A program made the translations under genes and the position numbers. Below, in pieces: positions 1-4,976 of a DNA stretch of 4,976 nt. The notes under the pieces are model-generated. The model was not told the DNA's origin. It saw only the letters and a program-made list of their open reading frames with translations, and made no database searches. Source of the DNA: a virus (taxonomy: Duplodnaviria > Heunggongvirae > Uroviricota > Caudoviricetes). Where the stretch lies: the IMG/VR virus record IMGVR_UViG_2693429680_000009. One strand, 5' to 3'. Numbering within the stretch: position 1 is the stretch's first letter; each line of letters starts with the position of its first letter.

Positions 1-72
1 GGGAAAAATATCATCAGATGGCTGCTTAAAAAAAGAACAAATGGTAGTGTCCGCTATTGCCAGTACACCTCA
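1..72. repeat. Left copy of a 72-bp perfect terminal inverted repeat (partner at 4905-4976)
   Basis: Reverse complement of 4905-4976 matches 1-72 base for base (checked in 10-nt blocks); identity ends at 73 (g) versus complement of 4904 (t). The left copy holds an ATG at 41 that opens only a 21-codon ORF (41-106). Confidence 0.95.
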
Positions 73-253
73 GGATAGCGGTCATGTGATGCCGGTTTCC
101 CGGTAACTCAGCACCGGTATCTGAGTCAACGTTTTCTCTACTGGGTCATTTCCGATACGCCCTGCCTGCTGACAGGCTTTCATCACATCTGAAAATATAG
201 CACCCTGACTGATACTGTAGTACCTAAGGTTCCAGAAACTGTGATGTATCCGG

Positions 254-280
254 CACAGAAAAGCCCCTCCGGAGAGGGCT
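254..280 (-). terminator. Putative rho-independent terminator (minus strand)
   Basis: Minus-strand imperfect GC-rich hairpin AGCCCTCTCCGGAGGGGCT (core palindrome CTCCGGAG) followed by TTTTCTGTG. Confidence 0.5.
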
Positions 281-476
281 GGAGAGTGGCGCTATGTGCC
301 ATTGCATGATGCCGGGTGCCTCCCGGTGAATTCAGTACCAGCACCTGAATCCGCGATTATCCCATATACCTACTCGCTGATTGCCCCTCCGCACAGGGGG
401 ATTCACCATGCCAGTTTCTTTTAACAAACTCCCCGCAAAACAGACAACTGTCAACCGTCTGAATTGTGAGACATTT

Positions 477-502
477 AAAAAAAAGGCCCGCAAAAGCGAG
501 CC
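477..502 (-). terminator. Rho-independent terminator just 3' of tRNA-Arg (minus strand)
   Basis: Minus-strand hairpin GGCTCGC-TTTT-GCGGGCC (7-bp stem, one mismatch) followed by eight T (plus-strand A-run 477-484). Confidence 0.7.
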
Positions 503-516
503 AGGGAAAATAAGTG

Positions 517-593
517 TGGCGCGTTGTACTGGATTCGAACCAGTGACCGATTGCTTAGAAGGCAATTGCTCTGTCCGGCTGAGCTAACAACGC
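517..593 (-). tRNA. tRNA-Arg (anticodon UCU), 77 nt, CCA encoded
   Basis: Reverse complement GCGTTGTTAGCTCAGCCGGACAGAGCAATTGCCTTCTAAGCAATCGGTCACTGGTTCGAATCCAGTACAACGCGCCA folds as a cloverleaf: acceptor GCGTTGT/ACAACGC, D stem GCTC/GAGC, anticodon stem ATTGC/GCAAT, loop CTTCTAA (anticodon TCT), T stem ACTGG/CCAGT, T loop TTCGAAT, discriminator G, CCA. Confidence 0.9.
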
Positions 594-693
594 TGAATAC
601 CGATAATGGACCGCCATCGGGGACCCGCCCCCGCACCAACAACCCTGTTATCGTGTCGTCTGCTCTTCCTGATAAGCTAATGGCGGTTTGTGA

Positions 694-769
694 TGGTGGC
701 CCTTGCTGGATTTGAACCAGCGACCTGGCGATTATGAGTCGCTCGCTCTCACCACTGAGCTAAAGGGCC
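694..769 (-). tRNA. tRNA with anticodon CAU, most likely tRNA-Ile2 (lysidine type), otherwise elongator tRNA-Met; 76 nt, CCA encoded
   Basis: Reverse complement GGCCCTTTAGCTCAGTGGTGAGAGCGAGCGACTCATAATCGCCAGGTCGCTGGTTCAAATCCAGCAAGGGCCACCA: acceptor GGCCCTT/AAGGGCC, D stem GCTC/GAGC, anticodon stem AGCGA/TCGCC (one A-C mismatch), anticodon CAT, T stem GCTGG/CCAGC, T loop TTCAAAT. Resembles my recollection of E. coli ileX more than initiator or elongator Met; Ile versus Met cannot be settled from sequence alone. Confidence 0.85.
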
Positions 770-805
770 GGGAGCAGAATAATAACGGTCCGTAATTAAT
801 TCCGC

Positions 806-832
806 AATAAAAAACCCGCTCGGCGGCGGGTT
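806..832 (-). terminator. tR'-like rho-independent terminator between the Q-type gene and the tRNAs
   Basis: Minus-strand hairpin AACCCGCCGCCGAGCGGGTT (stem CCCGC/GCGGG) followed by TTTTTTATT, about 40-65 nt downstream of the predicted late promoter. Confidence 0.65.
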
Positions 833-871
833 GTAGAAACTCTTCTAACGTCAGGCATAAAACGCCCATAG

Positions 872-1726
872 TTATGACGAATTTACCACAGATTCCGGAA
901 AAATCAACCTAGTTACCTTTTTTAACTGCCGCTCAGCCCATGCTTCTTCAATATCAAACCGAGTCACCAGCGCATCATAGAATTTCTTAACTGTTTTTTC
1001 CCATGACGCGCGTGTTATCTGGTTTGTCACCTCGCATATAGCATTAAATGCCTCCGTTGATGGTAGTCTTTCATAGCCACGACCACCACAACGCTGGCAG
1101 TCTCTGATAACAGGCATACCACGTTTTACCGACTCTTCACGATGAATGGCGACACCACGCCCACGGCAATCCTTACAGGCGGTGGAAACCTCACCCTTTC
1201 CGCCACACTCCGGACAGGCAACTTTTACCACCTCCCTGACTTTTTTCCATTCTTCCCAGTAAGACGGATACACACCTTTCGTACACTTTGCCCATACCGG
1301 CGGCTTACCATCCGGATACTGGATCTTGTTTGTAAAAACCTCGCTTTCAATAAATTTTTTTCCGTGACAGCAGGGGCACTGTTTTTTGCTCGCCGCGCTA
1401 CGGGCATAATCTTCAAACGCATACGAAGCCATAATACGCATCACTGCCGGTTTTATTTCTGCCGGGAGTTTTCTTAACGCCGCCACGCGATCACACCGAC
1501 TGAGTGCATATTCTGTCAGCAATTCTGTTGCCCGCTCTCTGTCATTCATACTAATGCCCATTTTCCCAAGGAACGCAGAAACCCCCATCTCAGCCCGATT
1601 CTGTGTCATGCCCTGCGCGGCCATCACATCAGTGATACTCAGCGCATCTTTCGACGTTGAGGCCGATGCATCAGTCAGGCCGGGGGATTTTGGGGAGTAG
1701 TATTTCGGTAAATCTTCCAGTTTCAT
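872..1726 (-). CDS. Q-type late-gene antitermination protein (284 aa, multiple CxxC zinc-finger-like motifs)
   Basis: Long ORF with CPCC, CPEC...CKDC and CQRC motifs. Sits directly downstream of rusA (ATGA overlap at 1723-1726) and directly upstream of a promoter/terminator pair and tRNA genes, the canonical lambdoid Q position. Family call is by context and recollection, not a search. Confidence 0.7.
   Translation of the reverse strand: MKLEDLPKYYSPKSPGLTDASASTSKDALSITDVMAAQGMTQNRAEMGVSAFLGKMGISMNDRERATELLTEYALSRCDRVAALRKLPAEIKPAVMRIMASYAFEDYARSAASKKQCPCCHGKKFIESEVFTNKIQYPDGKPPVWAKCTKGVYPSYWEEWKKVREVVKVACPECGGKGEVSTACKDCRGRGVAIHREESVKRGMPVIRDCQRCGGRGYERLPSTEAFNAICEVTNQITRASWEKTVKKFYDALVTRFDIEEAWAERQLKKVTRLIFPESVVNSS
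880..907 (-). promoter_or_regulatory. Putative late promoter (pR'-like) embedded in the last codons of the Q-type gene
   Basis: Minus strand: TTGATT (-35, plus 902-907), 16-bp spacer ending TGG (extended -10 TG), TAAATT (-10, plus 880-885). Predicted start near 873, reading toward the terminator at 806-832 and the tRNAs. Confidence 0.45.
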
Positions 1727-2103
1727 TTTTTGACCTGCCCTTCAAGCATTATGGGATAAATCTTCACCCCCAGACGTCCACCAGATACTGGCTGAGCACG
1801 AACGATATTGATTTCATCAAACTGCTCATCGTCCATTAGCAACCCCGCATGCGTCAGCGCATCCAGCGGCGCTTTCAGAATATTGTCCAGGTCACGGCGG
1901 CGCTTATCCGGTGGTTCTGCAATAATTTTTATTGCCAACCTTCCGGACAGGCTTAATTTCAGCCGCTGCTGGCGAACAATAAGCGCCACTGCCCGGCGAT
2001 AACGCTCCCCGGCTTTTGATACAAAATATGTGCTGCCACGACGACGCCAGTAAGTGTTCACCGTCGGCGGGTAAGGTAAAACAAATTCTATGCGCTCGGT
2101 CAT
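1723..2103 (-). CDS. rusA: RusA-family Holliday junction resolvase (126 aa)
   Basis: Protein contains PDKRRRDLDNILKAPLDALTHAGLLMDDEQ and VLPYPPTVNTYWRRRG, matching the RusA acidic catalytic core as I recall it from E. coli RusA. Start abuts the upstream stop (TAAATG at 2101-2106). Confidence 0.9.
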   Translation of the reverse strand: MTERIEFVLPYPPTVNTYWRRRGSTYFVSKAGERYRRAVALIVRQQRLKLSLSGRLAIKIIAEPPDKRRRDLDNILKAPLDALTHAGLLMDDEQFDEINIVRAQPVSGGRLGVKIYPIMLEGQVKK

Positions 2104-3162
2104 TTATGCTTTCCACTTCAGAACACCCGAATTTCTCGCGTGCATTAAAAAACGAATCAGCAACAACAGCTGACTGCCGTGTTTCTCTTCAAAATCTTTT
2201 ACTCCGGCATGTAGTTCGTTACGGCATTTACGGCATAACGGAATAACAAACAAATCATCAGCCTTTGTTCCCATCCCTCCCAGTCCATGACCAATGATGT
2301 GATGCGGATCATCTGCCTGATTGCCACACGTCATGCATTTCTGCGTTTTTACCCAGCGCGTGTATACAGGCATCTCTTCCCGTTGTGATTTCTGGCGCTG
2401 GAGATACTGAGCCGGTGACTCCGGATCAACGGCAATGCTGACCACCGTCTTTTCCTGTGGTGGGTTCTGTTGCTGGTGGACGTGAGGCAGTAACGCAATA
2501 TTTTTTGTGCGCTGCTTCAGTATGCTGGTGGCTGTCTGCTCTCCCGGTATGATGTCGCTTTCACTGTACACAGAGCGAATTTTTTCCGCACGCAACCCCA
2601 GCGAACGACGTAATACCGCTTCCGGTAGCGCGTCCGCCACCTGATTGCGGACCGCCCACCAGGATAATTCAGCCAGAGATAATTCACGCTCCTGCGTACC
2701 GCTTATTGCGTGACCGATGACGTCAATCATCCATGCTGACAGGTTTTGATGAGCAAGTTGCTCGAGTGATTCGGATGTCTGGTCACGCAGCTGGTTGTCG
2801 CAGTGCCAGCACAACACCATTGCGCCGGTACCATAACGGTGAATGACGGTTTCGCTGTGATGATAATCGCCGTGTGGCCACTGGCAGGATTTAATATGGC
2901 GCAACAGCCAGTCAGACAATGCACCAGCACCACCAGCAGCACGAATCACCCGTGCGTTACTGAAAAACGGCAGCAATGTTTTGTCTTCCACCAGCGGCTG
3001 GCGAGCGGCAGGAACGACCCCGGACGGCAGATTACGCATGCTTTTTGGTTCCGGCTCCACCAGTATTCTGCCGTTATGGAATGCTGACATTGATTCACGG
3101 CCTGGCTTAACGATAACCAGACCGAGTTCCGGTACCAGAACAGGTCGAAGTAATACCCGCAC
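2104..3162 (-). CDS. DUF968-family prophage protein (YdfU-like) with C-terminal HNH-like motif, 352 aa
   Basis: Full-length ORF in the position YdfU-type genes occupy before rusA/Q. C-terminal CMTCG...PHHIIGHGLGG...LCRKCRNELH has HNH-like CxxC...HH...CxxC...H spacing. Start is uncertain: GTG at 3162 sits only 4 nt from a GGAGG; internal ATGs at codons 25 and 42 lack a good RBS. Confidence 0.72.
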   Translation of the reverse strand: MRVLLRPVLVPELGLVIVKPGRESMSAFHNGRILVEPEPKSMRNLPSGVVPAARQPLVEDKTLLPFFSNARVIRAAGGAGALSDWLLRHIKSCQWPHGDYHHSETVIHRYGTGAMVLCWHCDNQLRDQTSESLEQLAHQNLSAWMIDVIGHAISGTQERELSLAELSWWAVRNQVADALPEAVLRRSLGLRAEKIRSVYSESDIIPGEQTATSILKQRTKNIALLPHVHQQQNPPQEKTVVSIAVDPESPAQYLQRQKSQREEMPVYTRWVKTQKCMTCGNQADDPHHIIGHGLGGMGTKADDLFVIPLCRKCRNELHAGVKDFEEKHGSQLLLLIRFLMHARNSGVLKWKA

Positions 3163-3237
3163 ATTACCTCCAGATCCGTTGCTGGAATGTGCGGGACGGA
3201 CGCGTTGGCCGTTCGGAGTAAGGGAGCCTGACGGAGA

Positions 3238-3519
3238 TTATCCAGTGACGGTAGTCGAGGCTAAGGGCTTTTTTAACCTCGCATCCGCGCCTGCGGTAAC
3301 ACTGAATGAGCCATTCGGCCTGTTCTTCAGTGCATGGGGGATGCTGGTACCAATCAGATTTAAATGCGTGAGAGCGCCGCCCGTGCCTGCTGGCAAAGAC
3401 GGCTGAATTATCAGAATTGTGTAGTCTGGAAGGCAGTGGCTGACAATAGCGCCATTCTCAACGCGCACAGTATAGAGGCCATCTTCACTAAAAATTTCAC
3501 GTAATTCTTCGATTTTCAT
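3238..3519 (-). CDS. Small hypothetical protein (93 aa from the ATG at 3519; the track calls a TTG one codon upstream), in the rem position of Qin-like prophages
   Basis: ORF with RBS GGAAGG 9 nt upstream of the ATG; lies between the hok terminator and the DUF968 gene. No recognisable motif. Confidence 0.45.
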   Translation of the reverse strand: MKIEELREIFSEDGLYTVRVENGAIVSHCLPDYTILIIQPSLPAGTGGALTHLNLIGTSIPHALKNRPNGSFSVTAGADARLKKPLASTTVTG

Positions 3520-3601
3520 CAACAGAATCCTTCCAGATAAATAGCACTCCCCTGTTCGGGGTCCATCCCTCTTCTCCCTGCGCGCTACTTAAGTATTTTT
3601 G

Positions 3602-3631
3602 ATTCTATTCCGGCACCATCTAAAACTTCAA
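3602..3631 (-). promoter_or_regulatory. Putative sigma70 promoter for the small-ORF/DUF968/rusA/Q operon
   Basis: Minus strand TTGAAG (-35, plus 3626-3631), 18-bp spacer, TAGAAT (-10, plus 3602-3607), immediately after the hok terminator and about 85 nt upstream of the ATG at 3519. Confidence 0.3.
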
Positions 3632-3639
3632 ACGCGTTG

Positions 3640-3671
3640 AAAATAAAAACAAAAACCCGCCGAAGCGGGTT
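3640..3671 (-). terminator. Rho-independent terminator of the hok transcript
   Basis: Minus-strand hairpin AACCCGC-TTCG-GCGGGTT (stem CCCGC/GCGGG, tetraloop UUCG) followed by TTTTGTTTTTATTTT. Confidence 0.8.
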
Positions 3672-3739
3672 AAGTGTGGGTGCATTGAGGATGCCTGACC
3701 CATCAGAGGTGGCGAGGGATTTCTCCCCCGCCTGGTCTC

Positions 3740-3895
3740 TTACTCCTCAGGTTCGTAAGCTGTGAAGACAGCGACCTCCGTCTGGCCGGTTCGAATTCGT
3801 ACCTCGCAGAGGTCTTTCCTCGTTACCAGTGCCGTCACTATGACGGTTAAACAGATGACGATCAGGGCGATTAACATCGCCTTTTGCTGCTTCAT
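3740..3895 (-). CDS. hokD: Hok/Gef-family type I toxin (51 aa), HokD/RelF-like
   Basis: Translation MKQQKAMLIALIVICLTVIVTALVTRKDLCEVRIRTGQTEVAVFTAYEPEE: single transmembrane helix and conserved Hok C-terminal region; matches HokD/RelF as I recall it. RBS AAGGAG 7 nt upstream of the ATG at 3895. Confidence 0.9.
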   Translation of the reverse strand: MKQQKAMLIALIVICLTVIVTALVTRKDLCEVRIRTGQTEVAVFTAYEPEE

Positions 3896-3952
3896 AGCCT
3901 GCTTCTCCTTGCCTTTCGGCACGTAAGAGGCTAACCTAGATTTGCCGTTCAT
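3740..3952 (-). CDS. mok-like leader reading frame (70 codons), in-frame N-terminal extension of hok
   Basis: ATG at 3952 preceded by GAGG; the frame runs through the hok start. The 19-codon extension MNGKSRLASYVPKGKEKQA resembles the layout of chromosomal mok/hok pairs as I recall them. Confidence 0.55.
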   Translation of the reverse strand: MNGKSRLASYVPKGKEKQAMKQQKAMLIALIVICLTVIVTALVTRKDLCEVRIRTGQTEVAVFTAYEPEE

Positions 3953-4030
3953 AGATTGAGCCTCAGATTAATGTTAAGCGTCTTGCCGGACGCGTAATGT
4001 TAACTGGGGCTTTTCTCTATCTGCCTTTTG
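3940..4030 (+). ncRNA. Expected Sok-like antisense RNA region (not resolved)
   Basis: Inferred from hok/sok architecture only: the antisense regulator should be on the plus strand opposite the mok start. The best plus-strand promoter-like match is weak (TTGCCT 3909-3914, TAACCT 3932-3937) and no clean plus-strand terminator was found; a hairpin GCGTC/GACGC lies at 3976-3993. Confidence 0.2.
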
Positions 4031-4071
4031 GTGTTCATGCCTGAGACAGATAGCCTCAAGCACCCGCTGCA

Positions 4072-4099
4072 ATTCTACTTAACTCTCCTTTTCCCGCAA
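4072..4099 (-). promoter_or_regulatory. Putative hok mRNA promoter
   Basis: Minus strand TTGCGG (-35, plus 4094-4099), 16-bp spacer, TAGAAT (-10, plus 4072-4077). Predicted 5' end GGGUGCUUGAGGC near 4065 is complementary to the transcript 3' region (plus 3678-3690), as expected for hok mRNAs. Confidence 0.55.
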
Positions 4100-4186
4100 A
4101 CCGTTTTTATCCCCAGCGGCAAATCGAATACACCACCAGCGCCACCGCCATCGCAATTCCTACCGTTGTTAATGCTTCAGGCCAGG

Positions 4187-4531
4187 TCATCGTAAAATAT
4201 CCTCCACGCTTATCAGTCCGTTCCGCTCCAGATAACTCATCGCCTTATCCGGTAATTTGCAGTCTGGCTTCGCTTTCCTCAGTTGCCAGGTTAACTGCTT
4301 TACCAGCATGGTTAACTCATCGACCAGACGCTGATATCCCACTGGTTTGTATTCATGCAATTTACCGGCTGGCTCTGCTGCCAGCGATACCAGTGCGATT
4401 TCCAGAACAGCAATATCCATCTTATATGTGCGGATGATGTCATGGTCGATTGTGCCCGGTATGCACAGTCTCTGTGCTTCAATAGTCTCCTCTGCGTGAG
4501 CTATTAACTGCTCTCTGGTAAAAGTCGTCAT
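4187..4531 (-). CDS. Hypothetical protein, 114 aa, partial paralog of the upstream 55-aa ORF
   Basis: ORF from the track. Its ATG (4529-4531) overlaps the stop of the upstream 55-aa ORF (ATGA). Shares N-terminal MTTFTRE and a central [10 protein letters not shown] motif with that ORF. Confidence 0.55.
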
Positions 4532-4695
4532 GCCGTAGCCCCTTCTTGATATTTTTCAAACCAGAACACAACCGGCTCTGCTTCCAGCGATGCCAGCGCA
4601 ATCCGTGCCAGTTCCATTTGTTCACCACGGGTAAGCCCGTTTTCAAGCGGGTTTTTAATGAACAATTCAATACGTTCTTTGGTAATAGTGGTCAT
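4528..4695 (-). CDS. Hypothetical small protein, 55 aa, absent from the ORF track ([55 protein letters not shown])
   Basis: Hand-translated codon by codon. RBS AAGGAG 6 nt upstream of the ATG at 4693-4695; stop TGA at 4528-4530 overlaps the start of the 114-aa ORF. Confidence 0.5.
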
Positions 4696-4705
4696 GTGTT
4701 ACTCC

Positions 4706-4936
4706 TTAACCCGCAGTGCTTTCAACTGATGAGGGGAACAAAATCTTTTCATCAAACCCTGCATTCATATCATGAACAGCAACACACCAATCCATCGACG
4801 AACGATTATCAAGAGCCTCCATGATTTCATCCATGCGGCGTAGGTCATACAGGTAAATGCTTTTATCGCCAATGGTGTAAAAGCCAATTTTTTTCGGTGA
4901 TGGATGAGGTGTACTGGCAATAGCGGACACTACCAT
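4706..4936 (-). CDS. Hypothetical ORF, 76 aa, whose start codon and first 10 codons lie inside the right inverted repeat
   Basis: ORF from the track. No convincing RBS before the ATG at 4936 or the internal ATGs; its stop sits immediately upstream of the 55-aa ORF's RBS. May be a fragment or have a different true start. Confidence 0.35.
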   Translation of the reverse strand: MVVSAIASTPHPSPKKIGFYTIGDKSIYLYDLRRMDEIMEALDNRSSMDWCVAVHDMNAGFDEKILFPSSVESTAG

Positions 4937-4976
4937 TTGTTCTTTTTTTAAGCAGCCATCTGATGATATTTTTCCC
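4905..4976. repeat. Right copy of the 72-bp perfect terminal inverted repeat
   Basis: Exact reverse complement of 1-72. Confidence 0.95.

Follow-up and report, generated by a model that had tools for sequence, protein, structure and literature searches.

Inward-facing ends of two inverted IS600 copies very probably account for the terminal inverted repeat of a lambdoid prophage contig

The window, that is, the whole stretch of 4,976 nt analysed here, consists of a unique segment of 4,832 bp framed by two short arms (Table 1). From its ORFs, its tRNAs, Rfam and the Pfam families of identical proteins, the segment is recognised as an early-late junction module of a lambdoid prophage, where we find a 76-aa hybrid ORF, ORFs of 55 and 114 aa, hok/sok, an ORF of 94 aa, a DUF968 (NinG-like) gene, RusA, a Q antiterminator in its 284-aa allele, a tRNA(CAU) annotated as tRNA-Ile in E. 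coli, a tRNA-Arg(UCU) and STnc100. Compared with S. sonnei chromosomes, the window is 100% identical over positions 1-593 and 99.7% identical over 807-4976, and the finished S. sonnei loci differ from it by an additional methyltransferase module of 1.5 kb between Q and the tRNAs and by a Q allele of 273 aa. Colinearity over the whole window was found in no finished genome examined, and an exact-pattern scan of species-representative genomes gave no match.

Described by parts, the window corresponds to sequence of the type of locus L003 over 1-593 and of the type of contig L016 over 505-4976. The exact 125-nt join near tRNA-Arg is also present on three longer IMG/VR prophage contigs, L026 is colinear with positions 72-808, and the passage from Q to the tRNAs without the methyltransferase recurs in L013, L016, L017, L022 and E. 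coli strain 2D. Since both joins are found on other contigs, each of them is taken as natural and an assembler chimera at tRNA-Arg was discarded; the whole combination of joins occurs in no single finished genome, and look-ups of the two ORFs spanning the join returned nothing useful.

Table 1. Features of the window, with the evidence on which each assignment rests
Position	Strand	Feature	Basis
1..72	+	Left arm, last 72 nt (IRR end) of IS600-B	100% identity to annotated IS600 termini
41..106	+	21-codon hybrid ORF, MVVSAIASTP/QDSGHVMPVSR and stop	Read from sequence
73..75	+	GGA, inner copy of the 3-bp target-site duplication of IS600-B	Empty versus occupied site
73..4904	-	Unique segment between the IS600 copies, lambdoid prophage early-late junction module, 4,832 bp	ORFs, tRNAs, Rfam, Pfam of identical proteins
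4706..4936	-	76-aa hybrid ORF	Start codon and first 10 codons from IS600 end
4902..4904	+	GGA beside IS600-A, presumed copy of its original target duplication	Natural site in L023, flanks in L003
4905..4976	-	Right arm, terminal 72 nt at the IRR end of the other copy, IS600-A	Identity to annotated IS600 termini

The two arms are 100% reverse-complementary, as established both by a repeat search and by direct comparison of the ends, which confirms the perfect 72-bp terminal inverted repeat described in the sequence-only reading. The abrupt end of the identity at 73 and 4904, pointed out there as well, also holds, the match falling to chance level past the arms. No k-mer of at least 12 nt from the arms occurs elsewhere in the window, and a perfect inverted repeat of 72 nt arising by chance in 5 kb is estimated at ~1e7 x 4^-72, or ~1e-36. 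In agreement with the earlier statement that nothing inside explains the repeat, neither the ORF list nor the Pfam families of identical proteins gave a transposase, integrase or invertase within the window.

Sequence identity places the 72-mer at the right end (IRR, on the 3' side of the transposase) of IS600, where it forms the terminus of this insertion sequence of 1,264 bp, a member of the IS3 family, IS3 group, first described from Shigella sonnei. A total of 4,932 matches to the 72-mer were counted in 2,665 E. coli genomes, plasmids included, with up to 43 per genome; all 72 of its nucleotides align at 99% identity or more in 2,206 E. coli records, and it is also found in 744 Escherichia/Shigella plasmids annotated as IS600, such as pWR501 and pO157. 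The matches in E. coli genomes carry the annotation 'IS3-like element IS600 family transposase', that of IS600 ORF2 also occurring among the matches, and the homology of the window to E. coli genomes breaks exactly at 72/73 and 4904/4905. In annotated copies of the element, the transposase CDS, which involves a programmed frameshift, stops 43 nt before the terminus and hence within the 72-mer. Each arm accordingly holds the tail of the transposase, its 8 final codons followed by the stop: on the left, codons occupy positions 3-26 and the TAA 27-29, with the terminus ...CACCTCA ending at 72, and on the right the stop lies on the minus strand at 4948-4950, as the mirror image of the former. The termini of the element, with IRL reading TGAGGTAGCCTGAGTTTAACGGACAC and IRR, in reverse complement, TGAGGTGTACTGGCAATAGCGGACAC, are imperfect inverted repeats of the TG...CA form, and the ends of the arms in the window (...CACCTCA and TGAGGTG...) follow the same TG/CA rule of the IS3 family. 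In this arrangement, the body of IS600-B lies to the left of the contig and that of IS600-A to its right.

Both insertions leave short ORFs running across the borders of the element. Outside the arm, the 76-aa ORF corresponds to the C-terminal portion of a phage gene of 87 aa in its uninterrupted form, as in the E. coli homologue at 1530-1793 of L023, and the exact 76-aa protein is encoded immediately downstream of an IS600 transposase in the 10 finished loci shown. The 21-codon ORF begins in the other IS600 end as the mirror image of the first part of the 76-aa ORF, runs out into the flank and is probably meaningless.

Finished genomes supply what the window lacks. In eight finished S. sonnei chromosomes (L003, L005-L008 and L010-L012), both junctions recur exactly, base for base, and lead into full IS600 copies; the finished chromosomes with the 76-aa ORF next to IS600 measure 4.8-5.0 Mb, and two of them were identified as S. 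sonnei. In those eight, the two copies are inverted relative to each other and flank the same lambdoid module, with Hok/Sok, DUF968, RusA, the Q antiterminator and two tRNAs. The IS600-A junction leads into a full-length copy in all ten finished loci (L003-L012), and the IS600-B junction into a full copy of 1,264 bp in the eight two-copy loci, the finished relatives thus showing at both junctions the size of ~1.26 kb and the orfA/orfB organisation of the element. Its product there is a protein of 385 aa with HTH_Tnp_1 and rve (DDE) domains, annotated with a 'programmed frameshift' (-1). The two copies of L003 are 100% identical across 1,264 bp, and over the loci compared the copies differ by 0-3 mismatches.

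On the left, IS600-B entered by simple insertion and duplicated 3 bp of its target. The empty site is kept in L004 and L009 as ...GCTATCC/TTCCAGG..., whereas the occupied site of L003 reads GCTATCC-IS600-TCCTTCCAGG, which gives a TCC/TCC duplication, or GGA in the orientation of the window. The right copy departs from the textbook case. Its natural site in L023 is GGTGATGGA/TAGCGATC, and its flanks in L003 are an outer TTT and an inner TCC, the reverse complement of GGA, which do not form a target duplication; the presumed GGA partner is no longer beside the element, the natural upstream DNA is found inverted and 3.5 kb away, and in L011 the outer flank differs. The absence of a matching duplication fits a later rearrangement and is explained by an inversion of the adjacent DNA. 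As a side observation, the two IS600 insertion sites have 11 of 12 nt in common (GGATAGCGGTCA vs GGATAGCGATCA), and in the context of this similarity the GGATAGCG-like sequence resembles the IRR; a common IS600 target motif was considered and rejected, six other IS600 flanks in the loci examined being without it.

The length of the arms finds its explanation in draft assemblies. At the same junctions, draft contigs overhang into the IS600 IRR by 98/98 (L016), 70/72 (L022), 48/52 (L021), 34 (L015) and 31 nt (L020), and the contigs of L013 and L019 stop 72 nt into IS600 at a different IS600 junction. The overhangs thus vary in length with the assembly, are nearly equal at both ends and recur at other IS600 junctions. 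Because other assemblies give 31-98 nt and the value of 72 recurs at a different junction, this number is a property of assembly and not of biology, and probably represents k-1 of the source assembler. The idea that IS600 has a natural border at its base 72 was rejected, given that the flanking copies are identical over their full length and that arm length depends on the assembly.

Altogether, these data point to a plain origin of the repeat. The window would be an entire short-read contig of a Shigella sonnei-type genome, made of the unique DNA between two full-length IS600 copies that stand in opposite orientation within a defective lambdoid prophage, with the IRR ends of both facing inward. 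Since many identical copies are present per genome, the assembler would be unable to pass IS600, and the contig would stop at a fixed distance, 72 nt, into the element at both ends. As both ends enter the same IS600 end from opposite directions, a perfect terminal inverted repeat is the consequence, and the transposase is missing from the window because the contig stops 72 nt into each element. Judging from the relatives, the source strain itself would carry both copies in full length. We consider with high confidence that two inverted IS600 copies, together with contig ends lying inside them, explain the repeat, which is real but ordinary and an instance of a phenomenon already known.

Several other origins were weighed against this one. 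A fold-back or chimeric assembly, in which one true end is copied reverse-complemented onto the other, would also place a perfect repeat exactly at both contig ends, but each arm, together with 500 nt or more of the flank particular to it, occurs independently in finished long-read chromosomes, and both junctions are also seen in drafts from other pipelines, making such an artefact highly improbable. The arms could in turn be genuine MITE-like remnants, solo IS600 ends of the source strain, as the window shows nothing past 72 nt; it is nevertheless very unlikely that two remnants were cut at the same 72nd base in coincidence with both contig ends, and the full copies in all relatives, as well as the arm pairs of other assemblies, equal or nearly so but of different length, leave this idea with hardly any credibility. 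The architecture of an IS, a cargo and an inverted IS recalls a composite transposon in which two IS600 copies and the module moved as a unit. However, the outer flanks, TTT and TCC, share no 3-bp duplication, that of the left copy spans this copy alone (the empty site being kept in L004/L009), and the cargo lies in its native prophage context on the side of the left copy, in the gene order of uninterrupted E. coli prophages; a transposition of this kind is exceedingly improbable.

A different question, compatible with the preferred explanation, is whether the module is actively invertible, so that recombination between the identical inverted copies would flip the Q/tRNA module and both orientations would coexist in the population or among lineages. 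Being long (1,264 bp), inverted and near-identical, with 0-3 mismatches, the copies would make a good RecA substrate, and IS600 rearrangements do occur in these genomes, as seen in the missing duplication and displaced upstream DNA of IS600-A and in the outer flank of L011. Yet in all eight finished two-copy loci one and the same IS stands between the outer flank CCTGGAAGGA and the inner flank GGATAGCGG, a linkage that represents the native order of Q, SASA esterase and holin, orientation being readable in finished loci but not in short-read contigs such as the window. The inverted isomer appeared in none of the 25 contigs read, and active inversion is considered unlikely. A further idea is that of an on/off switch built by IS600, in which the flipped module would leave Q cut off from the late genes of the defective prophage in certain cells or lineages; with all eight finished relatives in the native orientation, it is a quite doubtful one. 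A site-specific invertible segment of the Hin/Gin/Cin/Pin type was discarded as well, the window having no recombinase ORF and its borders being IS600 termini instead of hix/gix-like sites.

In the light of two inverted IS600 copies with their bodies just outside the contig, a cause named by none of the three possibilities advanced by the sequence-only reading, these can be reconsidered. An invertible or inversion-duplicated segment was right only insofar as inverted repeats of 1.26 kb, which could recombine, enclose the module, but the orientation is native in 8/8 finished loci and the left target duplication is intact. A recombination junction between two related prophages is not supported, both junctions being of IS600 with prophage. 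Regarding a fold-back artefact at contig ends, the junctions are real, as they are present in finished genomes, while the part that stands is that nothing but the position of the contig end sets the length at 72 nt.

The locus adds one more example of the erosion of a lambdoid prophage by IS600 in S. sonnei. Of its two insertions, one has shortened a small early gene, and the other has parted the Q/tRNA region from the late genes, those of the esterase and the holin. Lambdoid prophage remnants flanked by IS600 occur in Shigella, for instance in the stx region of S. dysenteriae type 1. The likeness to this region resides in a defective lambdoid late-regulatory region, with Q and tRNAs, peppered with IS600 and IS1, whereas here there is no stx and the IS600 pair is inverted and not direct; neither amplification nor deletion was seen at this locus. 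With respect to the element itself, the arms agree with the annotated IRR at 100% identity and IS600 shows no difference, the window holding 72 nt of each copy; the left copy shares the 3-bp target duplication of IS600, and the right-hand copy is without a matching one.

A word of caution follows for draft genomes, in that a perfect terminal inverted repeat at contig ends can represent an overhang into an inverted multi-copy IS. Such overhangs are routine in Shigella because IS600 is among five massively expanded IS, which are found expanded in every species of the genus (PMC7373316). The transposase that seems to be missing in these cases lies just outside the contig. The present contig behaves like the breaks that arise at multi-copy IS when Shigella genomes are assembled from short reads (de Bruijn graph), with the same overhangs of equal length that depend on the assembly and not on the locus. 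Unlike the usual breaks, however, the same IS is found here on both sides, inverted and with the same end facing inward, which mimics a mobile element.

The window, whose 4,976 nt are the full length of its source, is bounded by a perfect terminal inverted repeat of 72 nt. A repeat search and a direct comparison confirmed that positions 1-72 are the exact reverse complement of 4905-4976 and that identity falls abruptly to chance level at 73 and 4904, as the sequence-only reading had described. No 12-mer of the arms recurs elsewhere within the window, and a perfect inverted repeat of this length in 5 kb, for which we estimate a chance expectation of ~1e-36, cannot have arisen by chance. That reading likewise correctly noted that the window contains no ORF for a transposase, integrase or invertase (ORF listing); the transposase that accounts for the repeat, that of IS600, sits just outside. 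In searches of 5,426 complete E. coli genomes with the whole window and, separately, with each of its ends, prophage homology extended precisely up to the arms (72/73 and 4904/4905) and no further, and neither junction was present in any of these genomes. The 72-mer alone gave 4,932 matches in 2,665 E. coli genomes (up to 43 per genome, 806 on plasmids), annotated as 'IS3-like element IS600 family transposase', and it also matched 744 Escherichia/Shigella plasmids, including pWR501, pCP301 and pO157, with an IS600 annotation. IS600 is 1,264 bp long, with an IRL TGAGGTAGCC... and an IRR ...GTACACCTCA. Since the frameshifted transposase CDS stops 43 nt short of the element terminus in two annotated copies (L001 and L002), the arm is the IRR (transposase-3′) end; within it fall the final eight transposase codons and the stop codon, with the TAA at 27-29 and its mirror at 4948-4950.

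Both junctions were matched base for base in eight finished S. sonnei loci (L003, L005-L008 and L010-L012), where a full-length IS600 adjoins each junction and the two copies are inverted, with their IRR ends inward. The ten finished loci lie on chromosomes of 4.8-5.0 Mb, including CP060117 (S. sonnei UKMCC1015) and CP022457 (S. sonnei 2015C-3566), and in 10/10 of those listed a full IS600 transposase is found immediately upstream of the right-junction ORF. This ORF of 76 aa, whose first 10 codons are provided by the IS end, is on record in the assembly collection for 795 blocks, of which 83 include contigs >1 Mb. The two IS600 copies are 100% identical to each other in L003, and those of most other loci show 0-3 mismatches from the L003 sequence, higher counts being small indels in some long-read assemblies. 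By alignment to the finished loci, window 807-4976 shows 99.7% identity and 1-809 shows 95.9%, with 100% for the subset 1-593.

The segment could, with low probability, invert in the source strain through the 1.26-kb repeats, yet module inversion was seen in none of the 8/8 finished loci with both copies; all of them retain native linkage, with Q followed by the SASA esterase and then the holin in their native order. A composite transposon was rejected, as the outer flanks of the pair mismatch and the left copy (IS600-B) has its own duplication. The empty left site, kept in the finished loci L004 and L009, reads ...GCTATCC/TTCCAGG..., and the occupied one GCTATCC-IS600-TCCTTCCAGG, giving a 3-bp target duplication; IS600-B is a textbook insertion. 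The flanks of the right copy (IS600-A) are unmatched (TTT vs TCC), without target duplication. Moreover, with the uninterrupted E. coli prophage L023 as reference, the DNA expected past 4904 (DUF4014, a 70-aa gene and DUF977) is inverted ~3.5 kb away in S. sonnei, and the IRL of IS600-A is now fused inside DUF977. Altogether, the unmatched flanks, the displaced inverted DNA and this fusion make IS600-A also a rearrangement breakpoint, an event outside the window that looks like an IS600-end-associated inversion. The second breakpoint, CACCACA/GGACAGCG, keeps the GGA triplet and carries no IS; the relocated stretch is interrupted by IS1 (L003 6543-10032, outside the window, right of 4976), and L011 has yet another outer flank at IS600-A.

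The length of the arms is fixed by assembly, not biology. Taken as the distance that a draft contig end reaches into the IS600 IRR, the overhang was 31 nt in L020, 34 nt in L015, 48 and 52 nt in L021 (likewise bounded by an IS600-tip inverted repeat), 70 and 72 nt in L022, 98 and 98 nt in L016, and exactly 72 nt, at a different IS600 junction, in L013 and L019. Contigs from de Bruijn graphs end at a collapsed repeat with equal overhangs, constant within an assembly and differing between assemblies, and the even values among them (70, 72 and 98) point to k-1, k being odd, as a likely length. The repeat is thus real but ordinary: a short-read assembler cut into the two inverted IS600 copies on either side of a prophage fragment, and only their tips are visible. 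Five IS, IS600 among them, are expanded in all Shigella species, and Shigella reference chromosomes hold 229-348 IS insertions each (PMC7373316), so contig breaks of this kind are routine.

The window differs from the finished S. sonnei loci by the lack of the 1.5-kb N6/N4 DNA methyltransferase module found there between Q and the tRNAs, by a divergent allele of the tRNA spacer (594-806), and by an 8-bp indel at 906, with which Q is 284 aa long instead of 273 aa; the mosaic region comprises 482-811 and 906. The assembly collection has the 284-aa Q in 385 blocks, never on a contig >0.2 Mb. An assembler path switch within tRNA-Arg was suspected, but both joins were found elsewhere: three longer IMG/VR prophage contigs carry an exact match to the 125 nt spanning tRNA-Arg, contig L026 is colinear with window 72-808, and the Q-terminator-tRNA join recurs in E. 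coli strain 2D as well as in several independent drafts. The mosaic is therefore plausible biology, the whole combination being found in no single genome among the finished ones reachable. Several draft contigs (L014, L016 and L019; GCA_9001579xx, 9001584xx and 9001594xx) hold two or three partial RusA-Q-tRNA copies with IS600 between; they resemble chimeras of two related prophages created by scaffolding or gap filling and are unfit as structural references.

Features of the prophage module between the two IS600 copies, all on the minus strand
Feature	Window position	Strand	Remarks
STnc100 sRNA	251-440	-	Rfam, 123.6 bits, full length (strong)
tRNA-Arg(UCU)	517-593	-	
tRNA(CAU)	694-769	-	ARAGORN: Met(CAT); RefSeq on E. 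coli homologues: tRNA-Ile
Q antiterminator	872-1726	-	
RusA	1723-2103	-	
DUF968	2104-3162	-	
94-aa ORF	3238-3522	-	
hok	3740-3952	-	Hok_Gef ORF, 70 aa (51 aa from internal start)
sok	3890-4065	-	Rfam match, 112.4 bits
114-aa ORF	4187-4531	-	
55-aa ORF	4528-4695	-	
76-aa hybrid ORF	4706-4936	-	

The module includes a complete hok/sok type I toxin-antitoxin locus (3740-4065, minus strand). Its tRNA(CAU), which we take to be a lysidine-modified ileZ-like tRNA, typical downstream of Q in lambdoid phages, pairs with the rare-codon tRNA-Arg(UCU). STnc100 lies downstream of these phage tRNAs, with the IS600-B insertion 178 nt further on; Stx phages carry stx in the region downstream of their tRNAs.

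The IS600 right end contains an outward-reading ATG 32 nt from the tip, so any insertion of the element can create a hybrid ORF starting MVVSAIASTP... Such ORFs occur here at both ends, the second at 41-106 (plus strand). The 76-aa hybrid is routinely annotated as a gene, although what it represents is an 87-aa phage gene that has been truncated and takes its start from the IS. Nearly identical 12-mers are found at both IS600 targets, GGATAGCGGTCA at the left junction (window 73-84) and GGATAGCGATCA at the right, the latter taken from the natural uninterrupted site in L023 (1727-1738), and IS600 is oppositely oriented at the left and right targets. The 12-mer resembles the interior of the IS600 IRR (AATAGCGGACA) and is absent from six other IS600 flanks in the loci compared. 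It could be chance, or an IR-like target preference such as has been reported for other IS3-family elements.
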